Assembly: GCA_964439025.1 (NCBI GenBank)
Contig: CAYTMW010000009.1
Coordinates: 35,749 to 99,748 of the forward strand
Direction: 5' to 3'
Origin: an uncultured Gemmatimonas sp.
GTDB taxonomy: Bacteria > Gemmatimonadota > Gemmatimonadetes > Gemmatimonadales > GWC2-71-9
DNA length: 64,000 bases
Part shown: positions 6,411-59,341 of the stretch, piece by piece
Layout: each line of letters begins with the position of its first letter
How positions within the stretch are numbered: the first letter of the stretch is position 1
The notes under the pieces: generated by a model
The model's input: the letters and a program-made list of their open reading frames with translations, nothing else
Told to the model about the DNA's origin: nothing
The model's database searches: none
Made by a program: the position numbers and the translations under genes

Positions 6411-7310
6411 ATGTCGTTTCGTCTGATGTCTCTCGCTGCCCTCTCCCTTGTGTCGGCCTTTCCGGCCGCTGCCCCGGCCCAGGAGCGGCAGCCCGTTACC
6501 CGCGCCAGAATCTATTTCGATGGCGACACCACCCTGATGCGGGACCGCATGCGCGCCATCACCCAGCGCAGGGCGCGTCTCGGTGTCGTCGTGGACATGC
6601 GCGCGAGCGACACCGACTCGATCGGCGCCACGCTGCAGACCGTCACCCCGGGGGGTCCGGCGGCCAAAGCCGGTCTCAAGACCGGCGATATCGTCACCCG
6701 CATCGACGGGAAGTCGCTGATCGCGACCGACAACACCAGGAGCGGCTCCGATGAATCGCTGCCTGGCGTCCGGCTGGTGGAATACGCCACCCAGCTCCAG
6801 CCTAACGACACCATCAGCGTCGAGTACCGGCGCAGCGGTTCGCGCCACACCGCCTCGCTGGTCACCGGTGATGAGCTCATCAGGATGGAAGTCTTTCCCG
6901 ACGGCGGCGACTTCAACTTCAAGGTGCCCGGTGGGATCACGATGGAACGGACTCCGTTTCGCGGCATGATCCGCGGCGAGCAGCTCCCCGGCGGCGCCAT
7001 GTCCTACTCCCTCGCCTTCGGAGGGGGGCCCCTTGCCGATCTCGAGCTCGCGCCGCTCAATGCCGACCTCGGCCAGTACTTCGCTACCACCGAAGGCGTG
7101 CTGGTGATCAACGTCCCGAAGGAGTCCACCCTGGGGCTCAAGGGGGGCGACGTCATCCTGGGCATCGATGGCCGCAAGGCGACGGGCCCCGGCAGCCTGC
7201 TGCGCATTCTCCGCAGCTATGACCCCGGGGACAGCTTCAAGCTCGACATCATGCGGAACAAGACCCGGACCACCATCACCGGAAAACTGGCAACAAAAAA
7301 CAGGGAGTAG
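6411..7310 (+). CDS. Secreted protein with two PDZ domains
   Basis: Signal peptide MSFRLMSLAALSLVSAFPAAAPAQ, preceded by GAGGAG. Two 'GGPAAKAGLKTGDI...IDG' / 'LGLKGGDVILGIDG' PDZ-type segments. The track ORF starts 15 nt earlier (6396). Confidence 0.8.
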   Translation: MSFRLMSLAALSLVSAFPAAAPAQERQPVTRARIYFDGDTTLMRDRMRAITQRRARLGVVVDMRASDTDSIGATLQTVTPGGPAAKAGLKTGDIVTRIDGKSLIATDNTRSGSDESLPGVRLVEYATQLQPNDTISVEYRRSGSRHTASLVTGDELIRMEVFPDGGDFNFKVPGGITMERTPFRGMIRGEQLPGGAMSYSLAFGGGPLADLELAPLNADLGQYFATTEGVLVINVPKESTLGLKGGDVILGIDGRKATGPGSLLRILRSYDPGDSFKLDIMRNKTRTTITGKLATKNRE

Positions 7311-7373
7311 GCAGGAGGCAGGAGGCAGGAGGCAGGAGGCAGGAGGGAAAAGCTTACCCACCTGCCTCCTCCC
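7311..7373 (+). terminator. (GCAGGAG)x5 heptamer array plus complementary CCTGCCTCCT arm; a hairpin followed by a T-rich tract
   Basis: Array at 7311-7345. AGGAGGCAGG pairs with CCTGCCTCCT (7361-7370). The downstream sequence is cttcgcttttcgctattcttct. Starts 1 nt after the PDZ gene stop. Confidence 0.45.
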
Positions 7374-7419
7374 ACTTCGCTTTTCGCTATTCTTCTCCCC
7401 ACCGTCCAATCGGAGTTCC

Positions 7420-10302: not shown

Positions 10303-10309
10303 ACGGGAA

Positions 10310-10346
10310 GCTAACGGCTAACCGCTAACAGCCGTTAGCCGTTAGC
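10310..10346 (-). terminator. Hairpin built from GCTAACN heptamers (13-bp perfect stem)
   Basis: GCTAACGGCTAAC (10310-10322) is the exact reverse complement of GTTAGCCGTTAGC (10334-10346), with an 11-nt loop. Lies 2 nt downstream of the permease stop and 8 nt upstream of the fabH start. Confidence 0.4.
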
Positions 10347-10348
10347 TC

Positions 10349-11563
10349 TTACTCATACCGCAACGCGTCAATGGTATTCAACCGCGCCGCCCGCCGCGCC
10401 GGCCAGAGGCCGAAGAAAAGCCCGACCAGTGCGCTGAACAGGAACGCCACGCCGACCGCCGCCGGCGAAATGAAGGTATTCCAGCCGAGGAATTGCGACA
10501 TCGCCTTGGCGCCGGCCGCCCCCACCATGACTCCAAGCAAGCCGCCCATCATGCACAGCACCAGCGCTTCGATCAGGAACTGGAGCATGACGTTGATCTT
10601 GGTCGCGCCCAGCGCCTTGCGAATGCCGATCTCACGGGTCCGCTCGGTGACGGAGACCAGCATGATGTTCATGATGCCGATCCCGCCCACGACGAGCGAG
10701 ACCGCCGCGATGCTGCCCAGCAGCATCTTGAAGGTCTCGGTGGTCTGCTGCTGGGTGGCCAGAATGTCCTGCTGGTTCCGGATCTGGAAATCGTTGTCGC
10801 CGCCCGGGCGGATCTTGTGCTCCCGGCGCATCACCCGCTCGATGTCCACCATCCCCTGGTCCAGCGGCACCCCGTCCTTCACCTGCACCGCGATGGAGCG
10901 GAGCCGGTCGGTGCCGAACATCCGGAACCGCGCCGTGCCCAGCGGGATGAGGATCTGCTCGTCGGGGTTCTGGAAGGAGCCCGCGGCGCCCTTCTCGCTC
11001 AGGATGCCGATGACCTCGAAGGGCTGGCCCCGGATCTGGATGTTCGTGTTGATGAGCGACACGGGATGCACTCCGAGCATCGCCGGAATCGCCGAGCCGA
11101 GGACCGCGTACCGTTGCCGGGCCCCGTCATCGCCCGGGGTGAACATCCGTCCGTGCGTGATGGTGTAGTTCCTCACCTCGGGAAAATTCGAGGTGGTCCC
11201 CAGAATGTTGATGTTGAAATTCTGGTTGCCGTACTTGACCTGGAGCGACCGGTTGAGCTCCGGCTGCACCGCCGACAACAGCTGGGCATCCCGGCTGAGC
11301 GCGGTGGCGTCGTCCACGGTGAGGCTCACCCGGGTATCACTGGCGCGTCCTCCCATGAACGACTGCCCGGGATAGACGGTGAGCAGATTGGCGCCCATGG
11401 CCTTGATCCGCTCCTCGATGGCCCGCTGGGCCCCGGTGCCGAGCGCCACCACCGCGATGACCGCGCCCACCCCGATGATGATGCCGAGCATGGTGAGCCC
11501 GGCGCGCAGCTTGTTGGCCCGGATGCTGGCAAACGCGACCCGGATGGTTTCGCCGATCATCAT
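10349..11563 (-). CDS. MacB/FtsX-family ABC efflux permease
   Basis: 404 aa. N-terminus 'IRVAFASIRANKLRAGLTMLGIIIGV', large periplasmic domain, C-terminal FtsX helices 'ERTREIGIRKALGA'. Confidence 0.9.
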   Translation of the reverse strand: MMIGETIRVAFASIRANKLRAGLTMLGIIIGVGAVIAVVALGTGAQRAIEERIKAMGANLLTVYPGQSFMGGRASDTRVSLTVDDATALSRDAQLLSAVQPELNRSLQVKYGNQNFNINILGTTSNFPEVRNYTITHGRMFTPGDDGARQRYAVLGSAIPAMLGVHPVSLINTNIQIRGQPFEVIGILSEKGAAGSFQNPDEQILIPLGTARFRMFGTDRLRSIAVQVKDGVPLDQGMVDIERVMRREHKIRPGGDNDFQIRNQQDILATQQQTTETFKMLLGSIAAVSLVVGGIGIMNIMLVSVTERTREIGIRKALGATKINVMLQFLIEALVLCMMGGLLGVMVGAAGAKAMSQFLGWNTFISPAAVGVAFLFSALVGLFFGLWPARRAARLNTIDALRYE

Positions 11564-16649: not shown

Positions 16650-18038
16650 TCAGGGAACCTGGCCGTCGAGCCACGCCGTGAGGGCGAGCCAGAGGCTCAG
16701 GACCGCGAAGACGACGGCCATGCTGCGGGGGAAGAAAATGAAAAGCACGCCCACGATGGCAAGGGCGACACTGTAGGGAAGCAGCACGGTCCTGCGCGCA
16801 CCGCTCATGATCTGCTGCATGGCCACGACGGCGCGACCGCGCCGCTCGCGGAGGCTCGGCCGATGAATCGTCGACGCCAGTACCGGCTCGGGGGCGATCG
16901 AGTTCCTGCGGCGGCGGCCCCCGGAAAACGCGGGACCCTTGAGCCGGATCTCGGCGCTGCGCTCGGTATCCCGGCGGAACTGGGCCTCCATCCCGAGGGC
17001 CAGCGTCACGTCTTCCGCGATGATGTCGAGCTCGTAATTGGCGACGAGACTCGACAGGTTGAGGTTGCTCGAGCCCACCCGGACCCAGCGCCCATCCACG
17101 ACGATCGTCTTGGCGTGCAGCATCGCGCCTCGCCATTCGTAGATCTTGATCCCCGCCCGCAGCATGTCGAGGTATCCCATGCGGGTCCAGCTCTGCACGT
17201 GGGAGAGGTCGCTGGTGCCGGGGACGAGGAGCCGGACATCCACACCGCTTCGCGCCGCGTCGATCAGCGACCGGTAGATCCCCGGCGGCGCGACCAGATA
17301 CGCATCGGTGAGCCAGATCCGCTGCGCGGCGCCGGCGAGCAGCAGCTCGTTGGAGCGTGAGGCGCGCGCCCCTCCCGGCTCGCCGGCCACGACTCGCACC
17401 GCCGAATCGCCGCGTTCGGGCACTTCGGAGAGCAGTTCGGTTTCGTCGAGACCCTCGCCCACCAGCCGCCAGACCACGTCGAAAGCCTGGTCCATCACGG
17501 CGGCCGCCGGCCCATCGACGGCGACGGCGGTATCGCGCCAGGGCTGGCGATTCCGCGCGGTGTACCCCGACCATTCGTCGCCGATGCAGAGCCCGCCGGT
17601 GACCGCCGTCTCTCCATCCACGACGAGCAGCTTGCGATGATCGCGGGTCAGGTTCTGGCGCAGGCGGAGGAGATGCGGGGGGTTGAAGATGCGGACTGAG
17701 ACACCGGCGTCCTGGAGCCGGCGCCAGTAGCTCTTGCGGGTGCTCATCGAGCCGATCCAGTCGGTGAGCACCCGGACGGCTACGCCCGCCCTGGCGCGCT
17801 CGATCAGCGCATCGGCGAACCGCATGCCGGTCGCATCGGCGCGAATGATGTAGTTGTCGAGGTGCACCCATCGCCGGGCGGCCGCGATACGATCGAGCAT
17901 CGCGGGATAGACCTCGGGGCCGTCGAAGAGGAGGGTGACGCGATTGCCGGGAATGGGGCGGCTGCCGGCGGCGCGGTCCATGGCGCGCTCGACGACGTCC
18001 GGGGCGGCGTCCTCCGCGAGCGCCGGCTTCTGGTTCAC
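16650..18038 (-). CDS. Phospholipase D / cardiolipin synthase-like protein
   Basis: Two HKD motifs (HRKLLVVDG...GG.CIGDEW and HAKTIVVDG...GSSNLN) plus C-terminal TM helices. GTGA overlap with the upstream HD gene. Confidence 0.88.
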   Translation of the reverse strand: MNQKPALAEDAAPDVVERAMDRAAGSRPIPGNRVTLLFDGPEVYPAMLDRIAAARRWVHLDNYIIRADATGMRFADALIERARAGVAVRVLTDWIGSMSTRKSYWRRLQDAGVSVRIFNPPHLLRLRQNLTRDHRKLLVVDGETAVTGGLCIGDEWSGYTARNRQPWRDTAVAVDGPAAAVMDQAFDVVWRLVGEGLDETELLSEVPERGDSAVRVVAGEPGGARASRSNELLLAGAAQRIWLTDAYLVAPPGIYRSLIDAARSGVDVRLLVPGTSDLSHVQSWTRMGYLDMLRAGIKIYEWRGAMLHAKTIVVDGRWVRVGSSNLNLSSLVANYELDIIAEDVTLALGMEAQFRRDTERSAEIRLKGPAFSGGRRRRNSIAPEPVLASTIHRPSLRERRGRAVVAMQQIMSGARRTVLLPYSVALAIVGVLFIFFPRSMAVVFAVLSLWLALTAWLDGQVP

Positions 18039-18610
18039 GCGGAACCGAGGCCCAGGGTGCGCTCGTGCGGGCGGAGGGCGGCGATCACGAAGCCGATCAG
18101 CTCCTCGAGCGGCACGCCGAGCTCGGCGGCGCCGGTCGTCACGTCGTCGCGATTGACGCCGCGGGCGAACGCCTTGTCCTTGAGCTTCTTCTTGACGCTG
18201 GAGACTTCGAGGTCGGCGAGGCTCTTCGACGGACGCACCAGCGCGCAGGCGACCAGAAAGCCGGAGAGCTCGTCCACCCCGAAGAGGGCCTTGGCCAGGG
18301 GTGTCGTGCGCGGTATCCCGGTGTAGGCCGCGTGGCCAAGAATGGCCTGTTGCGCCTCCGGGCTCAGCCCGCGCTCCGCCAGAATTCGCACCCCCTCCGC
18401 CGGATGCTCGCGATCAGCGGCGTGATCGGCGTTGGGAAAGCGCTCGTAGTCGAAATCATGGACGAGACCGACGATGCCCCACTCCTCCGGATCGGCGCCG
18501 TAGCGCTCCGCCATCGCGCGCATGGCGATCTCGACGGCATACATGTGCTTGCGAAGCGCTTCGGAGGCGGTGTGTTGGTGCATGAGGGCGAGAGCAGTGG
18601 CGCGATCCAT
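18035..18610 (-). CDS. HD-domain phosphohydrolase
   Basis: Contains 'H..AVE.AMR..A...G...E.W...GL.HDFDYE' (H...HD signature). Confidence 0.8.
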   Translation of the reverse strand: MDRATALALMHQHTASEALRKHMYAVEIAMRAMAERYGADPEEWGIVGLVHDFDYERFPNADHAADREHPAEGVRILAERGLSPEAQQAILGHAAYTGIPRTTPLAKALFGVDELSGFLVACALVRPSKSLADLEVSSVKKKLKDKAFARGVNRDDVTTGAAELGVPLEELIGFVIAALRPHERTLGLGSA

Positions 18611-18626
18611 ATTACTCCGCTATAGG

Positions 18627-18650
18627 CTATCAGCTATCGGTCCGGCTATC
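18627..18650. repeat. Left arm of a 24-bp perfect inverted repeat (GCTATC-type heptamers)
   Basis: CTATCAGCTATCGGTCCGGCTATC is the exact reverse complement of 19035-19058. Pairing extends to 18619 / 19066 with one mismatch. Confidence 0.9.
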
Positions 18651-18688
18651 AGACGGAACCTACAAAGGAGCCCGGCTGGCGCAAGGAA

Positions 18689-19055
18689 ATGGCCGCTGTG
18701 GCGTTGGGATGGGTACCGGAGCGGTGCGCGGGGGCGAGGAAGATCTATCCGGTGACGCGGACGTTTCCATCTGATGAACGATTCGGTCTGACGATGTAAT
18801 GTCGGCGAGCCGCGGTCTCAATCATGGCGAATCTCGCAAGAAGGCTGCGGCCGCAATGGGGATAGGGAATTACGCCGCTTCGTCAACATCGCTCTCGGAT
18901 CTGCGGCGGAGTCGGACGCACATCTCACTCTCGCAAGTGATCTGGCGATGGCCCCGGCGGATCAGCTGACCCCGATTCAAGATGAGCTCGGGTCAATCCG
19001 CAGCATGCTCGCCCGCCTCGCTCAGAAGCTGTCCGATAGCCGGACCGATAGCTGA
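18689..19055 (+). pseudogene. Four-helix-bundle protein (23S rRNA intervening-sequence protein family) pseudogene
   Basis: Conceptual translation carries ..IYPVTRTFPSDERFGLTM*CRRAAVSIMANLA then, after a 1-nt shift, EGCGRNGDRELRRFVNIALGSAAESDAHLTLASDL... In-frame TAA at 18797-18799. Frameshift near 18838. Confidence 0.65.
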
Positions 19056-19058
19056 TAG
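19035..19058. repeat. Right arm of the 24-bp perfect inverted repeat; part of a GATAGCC array (19035-19078)
   Basis: GATAGCCGGACCGATAGCTGATAG. It overlaps the last codons and stop of the pseudogene. Confidence 0.9.
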
Positions 19059-19080
19059 CCGATAGCCGATCGCTATCCGG

Positions 19081-19491
19081 TCAATGCTGCATCCCCTCCT
19101 GTGCCAACGCCGACGCCGACAGCGGCACCCGCACCAGCGAGCCGCCATCGACCGCAATCTCGAAGGCGTACGTGCCGGGCCGGGGAAACGGCACATCGAA
19201 CACGAGCACCGCGCCCGCCTCGATCTCTGTCACCCCCGGCGGCGGCGGCCCGAAGTGCACCATCCCCTCGCCCCCGATCAGCTCCGCTCCCTGGTCGTCC
19301 ACGAAGCGGATACGGATCGGGTGATCGCCGACTTCGGAGCGGCGTCCCCGCACCCGCAGCACCAGGTGGGTGCGCGGATGCACCGCGGGGAACGCAGCCA
19401 CCCAGACGTGCTGGAAGATGCCCAGCACGGAGAGCTTCCCGTGCTGGTCGATCAGCGCGTAATCCGCGAGCACCGCGAAGTCGACCTGCAC
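19081..19491 (-). CDS. Hypothetical protein
   Basis: 136-aa ORF starting 1 nt after the cyclophilin gene on the same strand. Composition is plausible for coding. No motif recognised. Confidence 0.6.
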   Translation of the reverse strand: MQVDFAVLADYALIDQHGKLSVLGIFQHVWVAAFPAVHPRTHLVLRVRGRRSEVGDHPIRIRFVDDQGAELIGGEGMVHFGPPPPGVTEIEAGAVLVFDVPFPRPGTYAFEIAVDGGSLVRVPLSASALAQEGMQH

Positions 19492-19492
19492 C

Positions 19493-19939
19493 TCAAGACA
19501 CGCGAATTGATTTGATCTCGTCGTCCTTCTGAAGGGTGTTGACCACGTCCATCCCCTCCGTCACCTGCCCGAACACGGTGTGCTTCCGGTCGAGGTGCGG
19601 CTGGGGCGCGTGACAGATAAAAAACTGGCTCCCCCCGGTGTCCTTCCCCGCGTGCGCCATCGACAGGGTCCCGGCCACATGGCGGTGGGTGTTGAGATGC
19701 GTCTCGCACTTGATCTTGTAGCCGGGCCCGCCGGTGCCGACCCGGGGATCCTTCGGATTCCTCGAGAGGGGGTCGCCTCCCTGGACCATGAATTCCCCGA
19801 TGACCCGGTGGAATCGGGTGCCGTCGTAGAACTCCGCGTTGGCGAGCTTCTCGAAGTTTGCGACGGTGCCCGGCACTTCAGTGTCGTACAGCTCGGCCGT
19901 GAGGGTGCCTCGGCTCGTTTCGATCGTAGCAGTTTTCAT
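19493..19939 (-). CDS. Peptidyl-prolyl cis-trans isomerase (cyclophilin type)
   Basis: Contains 'G..T.ELY....P.TV.NF..L......YDG..FHRVI..FM.QGGDP' and 'G.L.MA.AG.DT.GSQFFI'. Confidence 0.92.
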
Positions 19940-19946
19940 GAGAGGA

Positions 19947-19999
19947 GGGGTTGGGGGTTGGGGGTTGGGGGTTGGGGGCTGGGGGTTGGGGGTTGGGGG
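19947..19999 (+). repeat. (GGGGGTT)x8 heptamer array (one CT variant); (CCCCCAA)n on the coding strand of the flanking genes
   Basis: Read directly from the sequence. Starts 8 nt upstream of the cyclophilin start codon and ends 13 nt downstream of the preceding gene's stop. Confidence 0.95.
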
Positions 20000-26863: not shown

Positions 26864-26893
26864 GACAGGCTCCGAGTGCGGCCACAGCGGGGA

Positions 26894-26938
26894 GCTAACA
26901 GCTAACCGCTAACTGCCGATAGCCGATAGCCAATAGCG
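26894..26938. repeat. Composite heptamer array (GCTAACN)x3 + GCC + (GATAGCC)x2 + AATAGCG
   Basis: Read directly from the sequence. Fills most of the spacer between the GAF gene stop (26941) and the hydrolase start (26863). Confidence 0.9.
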
Positions 26939-42021: not shown

Positions 42022-42558
42022 CTACACGCTGCCGCCCTCCGGCCGTCCCTCCCACGCCGCCCGCGGAATCCCGTCGATCACCCTGTAAAAACCGAGATCG
42101 GCTCCCGACCGCAGCTTGGCGATGTACACTATCTGTCCCGTGTGCATGCCGAAGTGCTCGACCGCGTGATAAATCGCTTCGAGGAGGGTGACGGTTCTGC
42201 CCTGCACCTGCCGCCGCTCGCTGAGCGACGCGGGATCGGTGGCCGCGATGACGGAGTCGGCCTGGAGCACCGCTTCGGTGATCAGCGCGAGCAGCTCGGT
42301 CCGGGAAAGCGGCTCGCGGCTCGCGAACTCGGAGGCGCGATCGCGGCGATCGGGCGCGCCTCCCACTCCGCTCACCACCCACTGCCGGATATTGCCGGCC
42401 AGATGCAGCAGAAGATTCCCGATGCTGTTGGCGGCTTCGTGGGGACGCCACCAGAGATCGGCCTCCGACAGCACATCCACCGACCCGCCAATCTTGGGGA
42501 GATAGTGCGCGGTGAGGTATTCACGCGACTGGGCGAGAAAGGCGGCGCCGCTATCCAT
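42022..42558 (-). CDS. DinB-superfamily (DUF1572-like) protein
   Basis: Contains 'NSIGNLLLHLAGN.RQW' and 'EAIYHAVEHFGMHTGQIVYI' (His triad pattern). Confidence 0.8.
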   Translation of the reverse strand: MDSGAAFLAQSREYLTAHYLPKIGGSVDVLSEADLWWRPHEAANSIGNLLLHLAGNIRQWVVSGVGGAPDRRDRASEFASREPLSRTELLALITEAVLQADSVIAATDPASLSERRQVQGRTVTLLEAIYHAVEHFGMHTGQIVYIAKLRSGADLGFYRVIDGIPRAAWEGRPEGGSV

Positions 42559-42566
42559 GGGAACTC

Positions 42567-42594
42567 GCTATCGGCTATCGGCTATCGGTCCGGC
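42567..42594. repeat. (GCTATCG)x3 + GTCCGGC array
   Basis: Read directly from the sequence. It encodes the last residues (..AGPIADSR) and the stop of the TetR gene. GCTATCGGTCCGGC is also present at 18634-18647, and its reverse complement at 19039-19052. Confidence 0.9.
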
Positions 42595-43278
42595 CAGCAC
42601 AGCCGGCACGATCATGCCCAGTACGGTCTCTTCTGCGGTCGTCGCGGAGATCTGCGCGCCGTCGGGCGTCCACTCCCTGTGGACGGCCATCCACGTCAGG
42701 GATTCTACTATCAGGTGGGCAGCCGCGAGGTGATCGTGCCGGGCCGGCAGGGCCCCCTCCTTGGTGCGCCGCTGGAGGTAATCCGCCAGGCGGCGGACCC
42801 CGCCCCGCCAGAATCTCCGGAAAAAGACCTGGGAGACATCCGGCCAGTCGCCCCCACACCGCTCAACCAGCTTTACCCCCCGGCGGTATCGGTGGAGCCA
42901 TCGGTAGAGCTCCCGGATAATCCCTTCCACCTCCGAGGCAATGTCCTCAGGTGGCTGAGATTCGGTCGCAAGCCAAAGCTGGGGAAAATGGGATGCGTTT
43001 CGGAGACAGCGCCATAGGGCATCGGCGACGGCGCCCGGCTCGGGTGCCGGATGGGGAAAGGTCATGGTCCAGACCGTCGGATCCTCCATCGCCCGCCGGA
43101 TGGCCAGATCGAAAAGCGCTTCTTTTCCTGCGGCGTACAGGTAGATCGTTCCCGGTCCTACTCTGGCTCGCTCGGCGATTAGAGCAATCTTTGCAGTTGC
43201 GTAGCCATGAAGAATAAATACCTCAGTCGCCGCATCAGCTATATGATCTATACGGTTAGCTGCTTTTACCCTAGGCAT
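42568..43278 (-). CDS. TetR/AcrR-family transcriptional regulator
   Basis: N-terminal HTH 'I..AA.EVF...GY...KIA.IAERA.VG.GTIY.Y...KEALF'. The 5' ~130 nt are markedly AT-rich. Confidence 0.85.
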   Translation of the reverse strand: MPRVKAANRIDHIADAATEVFILHGYATAKIALIAERARVGPGTIYLYAAGKEALFDLAIRRAMEDPTVWTMTFPHPAPEPGAVADALWRCLRNASHFPQLWLATESQPPEDIASEVEGIIRELYRWLHRYRRGVKLVERCGGDWPDVSQVFFRRFWRGGVRRLADYLQRRTKEGALPARHDHLAAAHLIVESLTWMAVHREWTPDGAQISATTAEETVLGMIVPAVLAGPIADSR

Positions 43279-51957: not shown

Positions 51958-52010
51958 GGGGTTGGGGGTTGGGGATTGGGGAACTCCCCCAGCCCCCAAC
52001 CCCCAAACCC
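51958..52010. terminator. Long imperfect G-run/C-run hairpin built from GGGGTT-type units between convergent genes
   Basis: GGGGTTGGGGGTTGGGGATTGGGG-AACT-CCCCCAGCCCCCAACCCCCAAACCC. Sits between the S41 stop (51955) and the M61 stop (52010-52012). Confidence 0.45.
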
Positions 52011-53833
52011 TACCCCCCCGTCGTCCCCGTCAATATCCCCCGCCTGATCCTCGCCGCCTTCGGGCTCGCCGTCGCATCCCACAAGAGCCGCGTGTCCACG
52101 ATGAGCTCCCGGCGTACCTCCATCTGCACCGTACGCTCGGCATCGTTCCGGCGGACCACGACGGGAATCGTGCTGCCGACGGCGTCGGCGTAGCGCGTCC
52201 GAAATTGCAGCGCGAAGTTTTCGTCTTTGACCTCGACCTCTCCGACCTTGAGGATCTGATCACCGGGCTCGATGCCGGCGTCGAAGGCCGCGCTGCCGCG
52301 CGTCACCGCGGTCACGAAGACGCGTAAGCTGTCGGACAGCGTGTTGACGCCCAGTCGCAGCTCGCGCGTGCTGTCGGCGACTTGCCTGATCCCGCCGAGG
52401 GCGCCCACCGTGGCCCAGGGAAACGGCTCCCTGCCATCGATATACTTCGCGGCGAACTCGGTGAACGGGCGCCCCCCCGCCGCGGCGGTGACCGCCGCCC
52501 ACCACTCCGCGGTGGTGAAGCCTTTCCCCTTCTTGTACGTGCTCTGGTAGAGACCCCGCATCACGTCGTCGAGCGAGCGGCGATTGTCGCTCCCGTCACG
52601 AATCAGGATGTCCAGCAGCAGTCCCGCGAGAGACCCTTTGTCGTAGTAGATGTCGCCGGTCCCATCGGTCGGATCGATCCAGCTGGTGAGCGACGCATCT
52701 TCGAGGGCGATCGGCACCGTCTGGTCGGTATGCTCCCGTTTGCCCTCGGTGACGCTCAGGAATACCGTCGAATCGAGAATGCCCCCGCGCACCAGTGCGA
52801 GATCGGCGTAGTAATCGGTGATCCCCTCGCTCACCCAGAGCAGCGTGGTCGGCTGCGGCTGGTCATATCGGTACGGCACCATCTCGGACGGGCGGAGCCG
52901 CTTCACGTTCCAGGCGTGGAAGATCTCGTGCGCAGTGATCGAGGCCAGCAGCGCGGTACCGATGAACTGCGGATTGTAGATGCCGACGTGCGAGTTCTGG
53001 TGCTCGAGGGCGCTCCCGCCGGCGAACGACGGCTCGAAGATCAGCATCGTGGTGTAGTGCTTCCACGGCGTCTCGCCGAAGATCTTGGACTGGGGCGGAA
53101 CCATCGCCTGAATCTGCTCCCAGAGCACTCGGCGCGCGGCGGTCCGGAGCTCTCCCGACGGGTAGCTCGCAAGGCGGTGCCAGACCCCCTCGACCTGGGC
53201 GCTGTCCACATCGAGGCGGCCGATAAAAAATGGCATGTCGACCAGGTCGTGATAGTTCGTGGCGCGGTAGCGCCCCGCGCCGCCGTCCCGGTCGAGACCG
53301 GTGACGATCTGCCAACCCGGTGCGGTGGTGACGCTCACCCGCGCGGGGAAATCCATCCCCTGGCCCTCAGGATATGGAAAGACGTTGGTGCCGTTGATCA
53401 GGAGAAAATCGGGTTTCGCCCAGGCCATCGCGTTGTCGAGGGTGTCGGCCAGGAAATCGAACTCCACCCGGACCGGGCCGGCCGCCACCGGCCGCACCCG
53501 CCAGGTGTCGTAGTCGGTCTTGTCCCAAACGAGCGGCCGCCCACCGCTGGTCGCCGAAAAACTGGAGACCTTCCGGGCATAGTTGTTGAGCTCGTACGCG
53601 CCCGGCGTCCACGCAGGGAGGGAAAGCAGTACCGGCCCCGCGCGCGGGACGTCGAACTCCATTCCGATGCGCACGCTGCGGCGCTCGGCGTTCGCCGAGT
53701 CGAAGATGAGCTCGTAGCGCAGATTCGTTGCGACGCCCGGAGCCCGCGCGGGACGCGGCTGCGCCATGAGCGGGACAGCGCAGCCAATCAGGAAAACCGC
53801 GGACGCGGCGAGAGAACGAAAGCGGCCTGACAC
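52010..53833 (-). CDS. M61-family metallopeptidase with C-terminal PDZ domain
   Basis: Signal/lipobox-like MSGRFRSLAASAVFLIGCA. Contains 'HEIFHAWNVKRLRP' (HExxH..WN) and a C-terminal PDZ 'AA.DAGI.PGD.I..V'. Confidence 0.88.
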   Translation of the reverse strand: MSGRFRSLAASAVFLIGCAVPLMAQPRPARAPGVATNLRYELIFDSANAERRSVRIGMEFDVPRAGPVLLSLPAWTPGAYELNNYARKVSSFSATSGGRPLVWDKTDYDTWRVRPVAAGPVRVEFDFLADTLDNAMAWAKPDFLLINGTNVFPYPEGQGMDFPARVSVTTAPGWQIVTGLDRDGGAGRYRATNYHDLVDMPFFIGRLDVDSAQVEGVWHRLASYPSGELRTAARRVLWEQIQAMVPPQSKIFGETPWKHYTTMLIFEPSFAGGSALEHQNSHVGIYNPQFIGTALLASITAHEIFHAWNVKRLRPSEMVPYRYDQPQPTTLLWVSEGITDYYADLALVRGGILDSTVFLSVTEGKREHTDQTVPIALEDASLTSWIDPTDGTGDIYYDKGSLAGLLLDILIRDGSDNRRSLDDVMRGLYQSTYKKGKGFTTAEWWAAVTAAAGGRPFTEFAAKYIDGREPFPWATVGALGGIRQVADSTRELRLGVNTLSDSLRVFVTAVTRGSAAFDAGIEPGDQILKVGEVEVKDENFALQFRTRYADAVGSTIPVVVRRNDAERTVQMEVRRELIVDTRLLWDATASPKAARIRRGILTGTTGG

Positions 53834-56050: not shown

Positions 56051-56101
56051 GTGAACGCTGAACGGTGAACCGGAAAAGCCTCGACCGATAGCCGGACCGA
56101 T
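56051..56101. repeat. (GTGAACG/CTGAACG/GTGAACC) heptamer array followed by GATAGCCGGACCGAT
   Basis: Heptamers at 56051-56071. The 15-mer at 56087-56101 is identical to 19035-19049. Confidence 0.85.
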
Positions 56102-57877: not shown

Positions 57878-59284
57878 ATGATCCGCCGTCCCCTTGTGCT
57901 ACCCCTCGCCCTCCTGGCATGGACGCTGGTGCTTCCCCTCTCGGCACAGAACCGGAGAGCCGCGGCGCAGGCCAACCCCATCCAGCGCGAGTACCAGGCG
58001 GCCGCCGACCGGATCATCGCCGCGGCAACCGCCGACAGCGCGGCATGGAACAAGCTGGCCGAACTCACCGACGGCTTCGGCCATCGGCTGAGCGGCAGCG
58101 AGGCGCTGGAGCAGGCCATCGACTGGGTCATCGCCCGGATGAAGTCCGAAGGATTGGAGAACGTCCGCGGGGAGCCGGTGATGGTGCCCCGCTGGGTCCG
58201 GGGCCACGAGCAGGCTGAGCTACTGGAGCCCCGCTACGCCAAGCTGTCGATGCTCGGCCTTGGGCAAAGCGTCGGCACGCGCCGCGGCGGGATCCAGGCG
58301 GAGGTGCTGGTCGTCTCGAGCTTCGACGAGCTCAAGGCGCACGCGGCCGAGGCGCGGGGAAGAATCGTGCTGTTCGACGTGCCGTTTACGAATTATGGCC
58401 AGACGGTGCGGTATCGCGGGACCGGCGCGGTCGAGGCGGCAAAGGTCGGCGCGGTGGCGATGCTGCTCCGGTCGGTCGGACCGTTCGGGATGCGGACGCC
58501 GCACACCGGCTCGATGCAGCCGTACGATTCGACGGTGACGCGGATTCCCGCCGCGGCGATCACGATGGAAGACGCCGCGCTGCTGCACCGCATGCAGCAG
58601 CGCGGCCAGAAGATCGTCGTCCGGCTCGAGATGGAAGCCCAGATGCTTCCCGATTCGCCCTCGCGCAATGTGGTGAGCGAGCTCACCGGGCGGGAGAAGC
58701 CGGCGGAGGTGGTGGTCTTCGGCGGCCACATTGATTCCTGGGACGTGGGCACCGGAGCGATGGATGACGCCGGCGGTGTGGTCATCGCCTGGGAGGCCGT
58801 ACGCCTGCTGCAGAAGCTCGGGCTCCGCCCCCGGCGCACCATCCGCGTCGTCGGATGGACCAACGAGGAGAACGGCGGGCGCGGCGGCCAAGCCTATCGC
58901 GACGCGCACCGGAGCGAGCTCGTCGGCCACGTGGCGGCGATCGAGTCCGACGGCGGGACATTCAAGTTCCGCGGCTTCGGCTTCACCGGCAGCGATTCCG
59001 CCTACGCGATGGTCCGGCAGATCGCCAAGCTGCTCCGGCCGCTGGGCGGGGATTCGGTGACCGTGGGAGGCGGCGGCGCCGACATCGGGCCGATCATGGC
59101 GCTCGGCGTCCCCGGCCTCTCGCACAACGTGGATGGCACCCGATACTTCTGGTACCATCACACCGACGCCGACACCGTGGACAAGATCGACCCCCGGGAG
59201 CTGGCCGAGAACGTGGCGGCGATGGCGATCATGGCGTATGTACTGGCTGACCTGCCCAGTCCGCTACCACGTATTAGGCAGTAG
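57878..59284 (+). CDS. M28-family aminopeptidase, secreted
   Basis: Start at MIRRPLVLPLALLAWTLVLPLSAQ. Contains 'FGHRLSGSEALE.AI.W' and 'VVFGGHIDSWD.GTGA.DD..G'. Confidence 0.85.
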   Translation: MIRRPLVLPLALLAWTLVLPLSAQNRRAAAQANPIQREYQAAADRIIAAATADSAAWNKLAELTDGFGHRLSGSEALEQAIDWVIARMKSEGLENVRGEPVMVPRWVRGHEQAELLEPRYAKLSMLGLGQSVGTRRGGIQAEVLVVSSFDELKAHAAEARGRIVLFDVPFTNYGQTVRYRGTGAVEAAKVGAVAMLLRSVGPFGMRTPHTGSMQPYDSTVTRIPAAAITMEDAALLHRMQQRGQKIVVRLEMEAQMLPDSPSRNVVSELTGREKPAEVVVFGGHIDSWDVGTGAMDDAGGVVIAWEAVRLLQKLGLRPRRTIRVVGWTNEENGGRGGQAYRDAHRSELVGHVAAIESDGGTFKFRGFGFTGSDSAYAMVRQIAKLLRPLGGDSVTVGGGGADIGPIMALGVPGLSHNVDGTRYFWYHHTDADTVDKIDPRELAENVAAMAIMAYVLADLPSPLPRIRQ

Positions 59285-59341
59285 ACAGTAGGCAGTAGGC
59301 AAGAGCTGTTCACTACTGCCAATTGCCCACTCCCTATTGCC
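59277..59341. repeat. (GGCAGTA-like)x4 array and inverted (TANTGCC-like) period-7 array; the central 8-bp stem may act as a terminator
   Basis: GGCAGTA GACAGTA GGCAGTA GGCAAGA at 59277-59304. TACTGCC AATTGCC CACTCCC TATTGCC at 59314-59341. The M28 TAG stop lies inside the first array. Confidence 0.85.

Follow-up and report, generated by a model that had tools for sequence, protein, structure and literature searches.

Open reading frames (ORFs) of the PF05635 family are known from intervening sequences (IVSs) of ribosomal RNA with inverted ends in Leptospira, Coxiella burnetii and Haemophilus, and the conserved gene, the inverted ends and the origin of the ORF-bearing IVSs of 23S rRNA have remained unexplained since the early 1990s. 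In our study, a comparable arrangement has been analysed in a stretch of 64,000 nucleotides of DNA from an uncultured Gemmatimonas sp. (hereafter the window, 64 kb), where a disrupted PF05635 gene is held between two inverted arrays of heptamers at the junction of a DUF6941 gene and an HD-domain hydrolase gene. From the sequence comparisons given below, this feature is best described as a lineage-specific, recently inactivated copy of a cassette that has been resident for a long time at the DUF6941-HD junction of a clade of Gemmatimonadales. The cassette itself consists of a small PF05635 four-helix-bundle gene with its own conserved leader, enclosed by inverted arrays of heptamers with the consensus AGCTNTY, and its layout is the same as that of the ORF-carrying IVSs of 23S rRNA.

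The closest described system is found in Coxiella, in which the IVS is closed by a terminal stem of 28 bp and RNase III cuts within this stem; tandem GACAGAT heptamers start at the cut site on the 5' side of the stem, in two or three copies depending on the strain, and the S23p ORF undergoes reductive evolution with the stem retained (PMC4990558). The 5' untranslated region of Haemophilus influenzae hmw1A has a long hairpin with one arm made of a heptamer array; RNase III cleaves this hairpin, expression is tuned, and the change in repeat number needs both the hairpin and RNase III (PMC12721329). [quoted passage not shown] PF05635 genes are widespread outside rRNA, including in cas loci (PMC3936711).

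The cassettes are like the 23S rRNA IVSs in that terminal inverted repeats, which form a long stem, lie on either side of a PF05635 ORF of about 120 codons, the total length being about 430-480 nt. With the Coxiella IVS, they also share variable heptamers on the 5' side of the stem and an ORF which decays while the stem is kept. The first-pass annotation of this DNA had seen an IVS-like stem-plus-ORF architecture in it, and the RNase III-cut stem and tandem heptamers of the Coxiella IVS back this view. On the other hand, the window cassette lies between protein genes and not in a 23S rRNA helix, it is antisense to the host transcript, and its excision by RNase III is putative; across the window no match was obtained to the Rfam families, rRNA included. 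Further differences are a leader of its own, about 140 nt long in the intact orthologs, and the unit AGCTATC instead of GACAGAT. The parts of the window cassette are as follows.

18616-18654 (no strand assigned): left arm, tandem heptamers GGCTATC / AGCTATC with a GGTCC interruption, fitting AGCTNTY
18655-18715 (plus strand): 5' leader remnant of the cassette gene, from the alignment with the orthologous loci L161-L164
18715-18716 (plus strand): deletion junction with 64 nt lost, from alignment columns 137-200, gapped in the window alone in comparison to L161-L164
18716-19055 (plus strand): pseudogene body, PF05635 / TIGR02436 four-helix bundle, from the translation, profile searches, and protein and DNA alignments
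19031-19069 (no strand assigned): right arm, GATAGCC / GATAGCT units

The inverted repeat claimed at first pass was borne out. Positions 18627-18650 (CTATCAGCTATCGGTCCGGCTATC) are the perfect reverse complement of 19035-19058 over 24 nt, and the repeat search extended the arms to 39 nt each with 92% complementarity and 376 nt between them. The best ungapped inverted match at the cassette scored 30, whereas 400 equally spaced window positions scored in the identical way gave a median of 9 and a maximum of 14. RNA folding of 18605-19080, which had been proposed as a check at first pass, gave a structure closed by the arm stem (z = -4.0, with none of 100 shuffles equally stable). The arms pair with each other and neither of them folds alone; no terminator-like site was found in 18450-19250, and the arms lack the G+C-rich hairpin with a T-run that would be expected of each member of a pair of intrinsic terminators. 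The stem is kept in all five orthologs, including one compensatory pair, and the left arm is conserved in four orthologs in the spacer alignment. On the left, the arm adjoins the Shine-Dalgarno sequence and the start codon (18608-18610, minus strand) of the HD gene. On the right, the arm covers the last 8 codons of the pseudogene (…LSDSRTDS) together with its stop codon, TGA at 19053-19055, and ends 11 nt from the stop codon of the DUF6941 gene (19081-19083, minus strand). The arm thus encodes the C-terminal motif LSDxLxDS, whose conservation in the orthologs is due to the repeat being GAT AGC. Inverted 7-nt arrays on both sides, a unit close to AGCTNTY and a right arm over the stop codon are the features by which a heptamer-bracketed PF05635 cassette is defined here, and the window locus has all of them.

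After repair of the frame, the translation matched PF05635 with E = 9e-28 and 97 bits (gathering score 33.8) and TIGR02436 with E = 7e-29 and 100 bits (cutoff 24), as the first-pass assignment to this family had led one to expect; an intact translatable gene is not present. The number of homologs at E < 1e-5 was 1622, and the cassette's own copy is the one PF05635 copy in the window. The reading frame had been reported as broken by a TAA at 18797-18799 and a shift near 18838. Both lesions stand, since the orthologs have CAA or CAG in place of the TAA and a single A has been inserted at 18838/18839 (+1 frameshift), but the count has to be raised from two to three by the deletion of 64 nt, in which the true start ATG GGA GAC (MGD) and about 10 codons were lost together with the ribosome-binding region and the last part of the leader. 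The ATG at 18689, considered at first pass to be the start of the gene, has to be given up, as the alignment of four positional orthologs puts it in the untranslated leader; this leader, which spans about 140 nt from the left arm to the true start (MGDHRKLKVWQ…), is conserved in the orthologs. A motif in the leader, CGCAAGGAA at 18680-18688, is common to the two cassette types A and B described below (L081, L161-L165) despite their divergence elsewhere, and could be a promoter or regulatory element; a sigma-70 scan gave no match. The pseudogene carries three independent inactivating lesions (deletion, TAA and inserted A) and it is young, since its body is otherwise well preserved. In the intact relatives the ratio of nonsynonymous to synonymous divergence (dN/dS) was 0.02-0.13, with values of 0.04 and 0.13 for the two pairs with unsaturated dS. 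The gene is under strong purifying selection in the relatives and is not dispensable in general.

The arrangement is not peculiar to this locus. For a family-wide comparison, 80 loci from species-representative genomes were chosen via the homolog alignment, covering Acidobacteriota, Planctomycetota, Verrucomicrobiota, Chloroflexota, Gemmatimonadales, Nitrospirota and others, and 77 PF05635 genes were scored for their best inverted match, with one side taken around the start of the gene and the other around its stop, against controls of equal geometry from the same loci. The median score was 15 for the PF05635 genes and 8 for the controls; a score of at least 12 was reached by 53 of the 77 genes in comparison to 8 of 380 controls, and a score of at least 20 by 21 of the 77 genes in comparison to 1 of 380. 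Self-identity of the arms was 0.75 at a lag of 7, against 0.16-0.24 at all other lags from 3 to 12, and 88 of 131 period-7 arrays in the family loci lie no more than 250 nt from a PF05635 gene. The first-pass annotation had asked whether other PF05635 genes are systematically flanked by inverted heptamer arrays, and these counts answer in the affirmative; a gene between inverted heptamer arrays is the normal architecture of non-rRNA PF05635 genes across many phyla.

The median length of the family arms is 27 nt. About 27 nt also separate the end of the left arm from the start codon, 60% of the right arms start within the ORF or its stop codon, and the array copy number is mostly 4-5. The units vary between cassettes, also between those of one genome (L008), yet share the consensus AGCTNTY: when phased on xGC, the first position is A in 31 of 38 units, position 4 is T in 27 of 38, position 6 is T in 27 of 38 and position 7 is a pyrimidine in 34 of 38. 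The triplet AGC is present in 29 of 39 units, as compared with a chance expectation of about 4. By crude longest-ORF gene calls, the cassette has the orientation of both its neighbours in 47 of 72 cases and is antisense to both in 5 of 72, and the median gaps to the neighbours are 74 and 52 nt. This co-orientation and the short gaps argue that the typical cassette is embedded in the sense direction in an operon-like string of genes.

Named examples of the architecture come from annotated plasmids. In Nostoc punctiforme, NPUN_RS35280 on pNPUN02 has five copies of GTCAGGA directly before its ATG and a TCCTGAC array over its stop codon. On plasmid 1 of the cultured gemmatimonad Gemmatirosa kalamazoonensis (L173, 1006368-1009133) the units are of 8 nt (CCTGCCCT / AGGGCAGG) with an inverted-repeat score of 28, and therefore the period is not strictly 7 in every lineage. 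In Pseudanabaena galeata pPg_01 (L175, 45068-47812), the PF05635 gene lies between cas6 and cas4 and has very long arrays. The topology of this last locus, a CRISPR locus, is a variant: upstream, (AGCTTTT)n followed by 16 copies of AAAAGCT makes a hairpin, and downstream there are 10 copies of AAAAGCC in direct orientation.

The history of the cassette was followed at the junction in which it sits. The nearest homologs of the window gene are intact proteins of 122-124 aa with 60-76% identity and are positional orthologs; on their contigs the order HD, PF05635 (opposite strand), DUF6941, peptidyl-prolyl isomerase (PPIase) and thioredoxin-like is the order of the window. An exact look-up of the window's HD protein gave no match, and it is the orthologous contigs that place the window in Gemmatimonadales. 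The possibility that the nearest relatives lie at other loci, which would mean horizontal movement, was considered and rejected, as these positional orthologs occupy the identical junction. The two genes that flank the cassette in the window are the following.

18035-18610 (minus strand): HD-domain hydrolase gene, from the ORF, with PF01966 on the orthologs and 80 orthologous loci
19081-19491 (minus strand): DUF6941 gene, from the ORF, with PF22091 on the orthologous contigs

In this minus-strand string of genes, the PPIase gene (19493-19939; PF00160 on the orthologous contigs) precedes the DUF6941 gene, which is upstream of the cassette, and the HD gene is downstream with its start codon 5 nt from the left arm; the window cassette is antisense to this operon. 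The spacer is 470 nt long in the window and 537-561 nt in the orthologs. About 16 nt of it are left outside the arms, and the cassette is hence an insertion into a tight operon junction. What had earlier been described as an ordinary intergenic spacer is a tight operon junction nearly filled by the cassette. The ribosome-binding site of the HD gene (GGAG, the complement of plus-strand 18619-18622) adjoins or overlaps the base of the stem.

A comparison of the orthologous HD-gene spacer, which the first-pass annotation had suggested, was carried out with 80 HD orthologs from metagenomes, and intact, gene-less, solo-arm and empty junctions were all found. In lineages with HD proteins of 70-82% identity, the DUF6941-HD gap is of 2-30 nt and repeat-free (L083-85, L088, L097, L098, L102, L105, L107, L139). 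Other lineages carry gene-less heptamer hairpins with the units GTGAAAG (L087), GTGAGAG (L090, L095) and GATGGGA (L126), and the cassette is present at the junction in the clade with an HD identity of at least 85%. Many HD orthologs have heptamer arrays at the 5' end of the HD gene. Further, L138 retains a hairpin but no gene, the sequence of its arm (GCCGTCA GCCATCA …) being almost that of type B, and in L135 a single arm is left. At this junction a decay series thus leads from the intact cassette through the window pseudogene and the gene-less hairpin of L138 to the solo arm of L135, and this series supports the earlier proposal that the stem outlives the gene.

Two main types of cassette were seen at this junction. 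Type A, to which the window belongs, has a protein of 122 aa and GATAGCC arms, and type B has a protein of 119 aa and AGCCTTC / CTGAAGG arms (L081 and L165-L171, including a metagenome-assembled genome of Gemmatimonadales at NCBI); their proteins are 51-54% identical, and a third type occurs in L048. The type of the cassette is independent of the flanks. L163 (type A) and L165 (type B) have a synonymous divergence (dS) of 0.010 in DUF6941 and more than 900 nt of identical downstream DNA, and further swaps of type are seen between L161 and L169 and between the window with L162 and L081 with L171. The tract that diverges between types A and B begins at the DUF6941 stop codon, passes through the cassette and ends about 45 nt inside the HD coding sequence. 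These swaps are explained by homologous recombination in the flanks, and the pattern looks like recurrent allelic replacement or a long-lived polymorphism. Replacement of A and B by site-specific mobility was considered as well and rejected, as the divergent tract runs into the HD coding sequence. Within type B, the metagenome assemblies of L165, L166, L167 and L168 have 4, 8, at least 9 and 2 left-arm CCTTCAG units, respectively, whereas the protein is identical and the right arm unchanged; the number of units thus varies among otherwise identical loci, which is the mark of a phase-variable simple sequence repeat (SSR).

Beyond the identity of the cassette, we lean slightly, and by analogy, towards a reading in which the arms form a transcribed duplex that is processed by RNase III. 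The arms would usually be transcribed as part of the operon in which they lie, since the majority of cassettes share the direction of both neighbours, and either strand could form the stem. They would pair into a duplex of about 30-40 bp bracketing the gene, and this duplex would be a substrate of RNase III as in the rRNA IVSs and the Haemophilus hmw1A hairpin. Cleavage would excise the cassette from the host transcript, which would make an insertion tolerable in a tight operon junction or within a helix of rRNA. It would also uncouple the neighbouring cistrons and, in the window, free the ribosome-binding site of the HD gene; as this site adjoins or overlaps the stem base, translation of HD should respond when the stem is processed or melts. 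Slippage of the arrays would rapidly alter the length of the stem and may tune the processing, and the stem would be kept after the death of the gene, which is the state seen in the window.

A number of observations weigh against RNase III processing of a transcribed duplex. Cleavage by RNase III at the window locus would be a matter of pure analogy. Among 48 cassettes the arm mismatches were 36 G·U, 38 A·C and 103 others, so there is no wobble bias, and therefore selection on pairing in one particular transcript is not demonstrated; a selection on the sense strand, which was hinted at among five orthologs (11 vs 3 cells), was rejected since it was gone family-wide (36 vs 38). The arms could also be kept complementary in the DNA itself, for instance through template-switch correction of quasi-palindromes. 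The cross-phylum AGCTNTY consensus goes beyond what pairing alone would require and suggests a sequence-specific factor, for which the encoded protein, a homolog of Avd with a pentameric relative in 2GSC, is the most economical candidate. The left and right arrays can differ greatly in copy number, and therefore a defined stem length is not conserved. The antisense orientation of the window cassette is the minority arrangement, the crude gene caller behind the orientation count limits how far that count can be taken, and the survival of the window stem may simply reflect the recent death of a gene with three lesions only.

It is possible, though we consider it unlikely, that the arms are instead the DNA-level ends of a mobile cassette, similar to terminal inverted repeats or to repetitive extragenic palindromic (REP) sequences with their REP-associated tyrosine transposases (RAYT), so that the arrays would be recognition or recombination sites and the gene-less hairpins and solo arms non-autonomous derivatives or footprints. 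The presence and absence of the cassette at one junction, its occurrence at many unrelated junctions in many phyla, a conserved unit consensus that implies sequence-specific recognition and the lack of a G·U bias in the arms are in keeping with such ends, and so are the solo arm-like copies at three other sites of the window and the gene-less inverted heptamer pairs that are common in the carrier genomes and in Geobacter (PMC2700814). A mobile-element origin has also been proposed for IVSs (Ralph and McClelland 1993, in the words quoted by PMC4990558). Likewise, the REP/RAYT systems have a gene flanked by inverted short repeats which are also scattered as gene-less intergenic hairpins. However, RAYT is a Y1 transposase of known cleavage chemistry, whereas PF05635 is a helical bundle of 120 aa with no recognised catalytic domain, be it transposase, recombinase or nuclease, and the arms here are tandem arrays of variable units and not a single conserved REP. 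The flanked gene, being PF05635 and not a Y1 (HUH) transposase, sets the cassette apart from the REPtrons, and a cassette with no transposase and no target-site duplication is equally unlike a transposon or a miniature inverted-repeat transposable element; in the window, L081 and L161-L164 no target-site duplication is visible outside the arms. With the cassette protein, PADLOC gave no match and PHROGs gave a weak match to Avd alone. Moreover, the cassette stays at a single locus within the Gemmatimonadales clade, occurs as one copy in 64 kb, and has units that differ between cassettes of one genome (L008), and the breakpoint of the A/B swap inside the HD coding sequence speaks for homologous recombination and not for site-specific exchange. 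The earlier suggestion that the arms could be a recombination or mobility site is hence without direct support.

An improbable reading to about the same degree is that the arrays are chiefly an SSR switch, in which slippage alters the expression of the PF05635 or the HD gene and the inverted pairing is secondary. The variation of the left array from 2 to at least 9 copies among loci with identical protein and right arm is what such a switch would give, the strains of Coxiella differ by one unit (PMC4990558), the heptamer SSR of Haemophilus hmw1A controls expression (PMC12721329), and many HD orthologs have arrays at the HD 5' end. The cassettes resemble hmw1A in the variable tandem heptamer array that forms an arm of a long hairpin; in hmw1A, however, the partner arm is a G-rich region, the hairpin lies in the 5' untranslated region with no enclosed gene, and no PF05635 gene is involved. 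A switch alone would leave the matching inverted array beyond the gene in most cassettes unexplained, and also the overlap of the right arm with the stop codon. Since the Haemophilus case needs the hairpin and RNase III as well, slippage is more a refinement of RNase III processing than a rival to it, and the differences in copy number are known from metagenome assemblies alone.

Less probable again is the view that the arrays are binding sites for a PF05635 homopentamer, with 4-5 AGCTNTY units in RNA or DNA contacted for autoregulation or control of the stem. Such a mode would be similar to that of the ring-shaped TRAP on spaced GAG repeats. Across phyla the units keep a consensus whose AGC(T) core is almost invariant while the spacer positions vary, the commonest copy number is 4-5, and purifying selection indicates that the protein does something. 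Five chains make up the deposited structure of the closest solved relative, 2GSC (XCC0516), which is described, in papers citing Lin et al. (2006), as a pentamer of four-helix bundles. Another relative, Avd, is the nucleic-acid-associated partner of the reverse transcriptase of diversity-generating retroelements (DGRs), and its four-helix-bundle fold family is homologous and pentameric in solved relatives. The cassette protein is nevertheless not a DGR Avd: the Avd models were far under their cutoffs (NF033474, E = 0.09 and 13 bits against a cutoff of 80; PF22296, E = 0.15 and 13 bits against a cutoff of 40), and no reverse transcriptase was present among the called genes around the positional orthologs, while the window itself was not scanned for reverse transcriptase or template and variable repeats. 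Against a binding role of the arrays stand the persistence of arrays and stems where the gene is dead (window) or gone (L138), the variation in copy number between 2 and at least 9, which leaves the protein sequence unaffected, the unrelated units of the gene-less hairpins (GTGAAAG, GGGGTTG, GATGGGA), and the GACAGAT of Coxiella and the 8-nt unit of Gemmatirosa, which fall outside the consensus.

That the inverted repeat is a chance match or a pair of independent terminators flanking a pseudogene can practically be dismissed: the cassette does lie between gene ends, where hairpins are common, but its score of 30 exceeds every one of the 400 controls, its arms pair with each other and not with themselves at a site devoid of terminator-like signals, and the same arms recur in all orthologs as part of a family-wide pattern, by which this explanation is already refuted. 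Two independent terminators had been one of the refuting conditions named at first pass; all of these conditions were examined, and none of them held.

Heptamers are also frequent elsewhere in the window. GATAGCC occurs 15 times where 5.5 +/- 2 are expected, and a period of 7 is the commonest tandem period (15 of 43 arrays). The link between the cassette arms and the heptamer arrays of the window, which had been drawn at first pass, is real, and three sites carry arm-like copies.

26916-26938 (no strand assigned): arm-like GCCGATA array, which with an adjoining AGCTAAC array makes an imperfect gene-less hairpin at 26893-26937
42566-42594 (no strand assigned): solo arm copy, 29 nt with 93% identity to the left arm, the GGTCCGG interruption included
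56087-56101 (no strand assigned): short copy similar to the arm, GATAGCCGGACCGAT, within an intergenic region rich in heptamers

No partner arms were found near these copies at 42566, 26916 and 56087. A TetR-like gene (42568-43278, minus strand) takes its final codons (…PIADSR) and its stop from the copy at 42566-42594, which may be the footprint of a lost cassette; this gene and an ORF of 178 aa (42022-42558, minus strand) meet at a tight junction of 9 nt. Gene-less hairpins of inverted heptamers are present in the window at 10305-10350, 51958-52012, 59275-59340 and 7302-7375 in addition to that at 26893-26937, and various units are seen among the five (GCTAACN/AGCCGTT, GGGGTTG/CCCCAAC, TAGGCAG, AGGCAGG); in the hairpin at 10310 the arm types stand in the order opposite to that of the cassettes. 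At 19947-19999, between the PPIase and thioredoxin-like genes and two genes away from the cassette, GGGGTTG is repeated 7.6 times, and the same unit recurs in the hairpin at 51958.

The carrier genomes likewise have gene-less inverted heptamer pairs 60-110 nt apart (L028, 5751/5858 and 7912/8019; L050, 4811/4869; L007, 2301/2381; L031, 802/860), which resemble the class 3 paired sites of Geobacter metallireducens. Like the gene-less hairpins described here, the STRR sequences and the Geobacter sites are intergenic tandem heptamers, often in inverted pairs. They differ in that they have been described with no enclosed gene, and have been read as regulator sites or as repeats with no function assigned, and no published link of the STRR sequences or the Geobacter paired sites to PF05635 was found.

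The heptamers of the Coxiella IVS, the non-rRNA PF05635 genes and the intergenic heptamer repeats (STRR, Geobacter) were each known before. No description was found in the literature of inverted heptamer arrays as general flanks of non-rRNA PF05635 genes; subscription journals and the comments of family databases were thinly covered, so an earlier description is possible. With similarly incomplete coverage, the AGCTNTY consensus, a right arm that overlaps the stop codon and the link to gene-less heptamer hairpins were not found either. As a long shot, less probable than a binding role of the arrays taken by itself, it can be speculated that the PF05635 cassettes, the gene-less heptamer hairpins (STRR sequences and Geobacter sites) and the ORF-bearing rRNA IVSs are one ancient cross-phylum system, where a pentameric four-helix-bundle protein would specifically recognise tandem AGCTNTY units in RNA or DNA, one per subunit, and help to create, maintain or spread hairpins at transcribed junctions. 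If this were true, it would be a partnership of protein and repeat comparable to RAYT and REP, but with a non-enzymatic, Avd-like ring protein, and the coexistence and repeated swapping of two cassette types would reflect selection on the identity of the cassette.

Our study suggests that the ORF-bearing rRNA IVSs are the form which a far more widespread object takes in rRNA genes. This object, a PF05635 gene with inverted heptamer arrays on both sides, is found inside ordinary operons of Acidobacteriota, Planctomycetota, Verrucomicrobiota, Chloroflexota, Gemmatimonadota, Cyanobacteriota and other phyla. A large uncharacterised family, annotated as 'four helix bundle protein' or 'S23 ribosomal protein', thereby gains a testable nucleic-acid partner in the AGCTNTY repeats and their stem, and the long-known intergenic heptamer repeats (STRR-like arrays and paired heptamer sites) are tied to a gene family. 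Nostoc punctiforme PCC 73102, Nostoc sp. PCC 7120 and Gemmatirosa kalamazoonensis are tractable carriers. In the annotation of genomes, heptamer arrays beside short genes should not be taken by default as terminators or regulator sites. The feature of the window is itself a pseudogene, a decayed member of its class, but the architecture which it has exposed is broad and testable and bears on the nature of the ORF-bearing IVSs.

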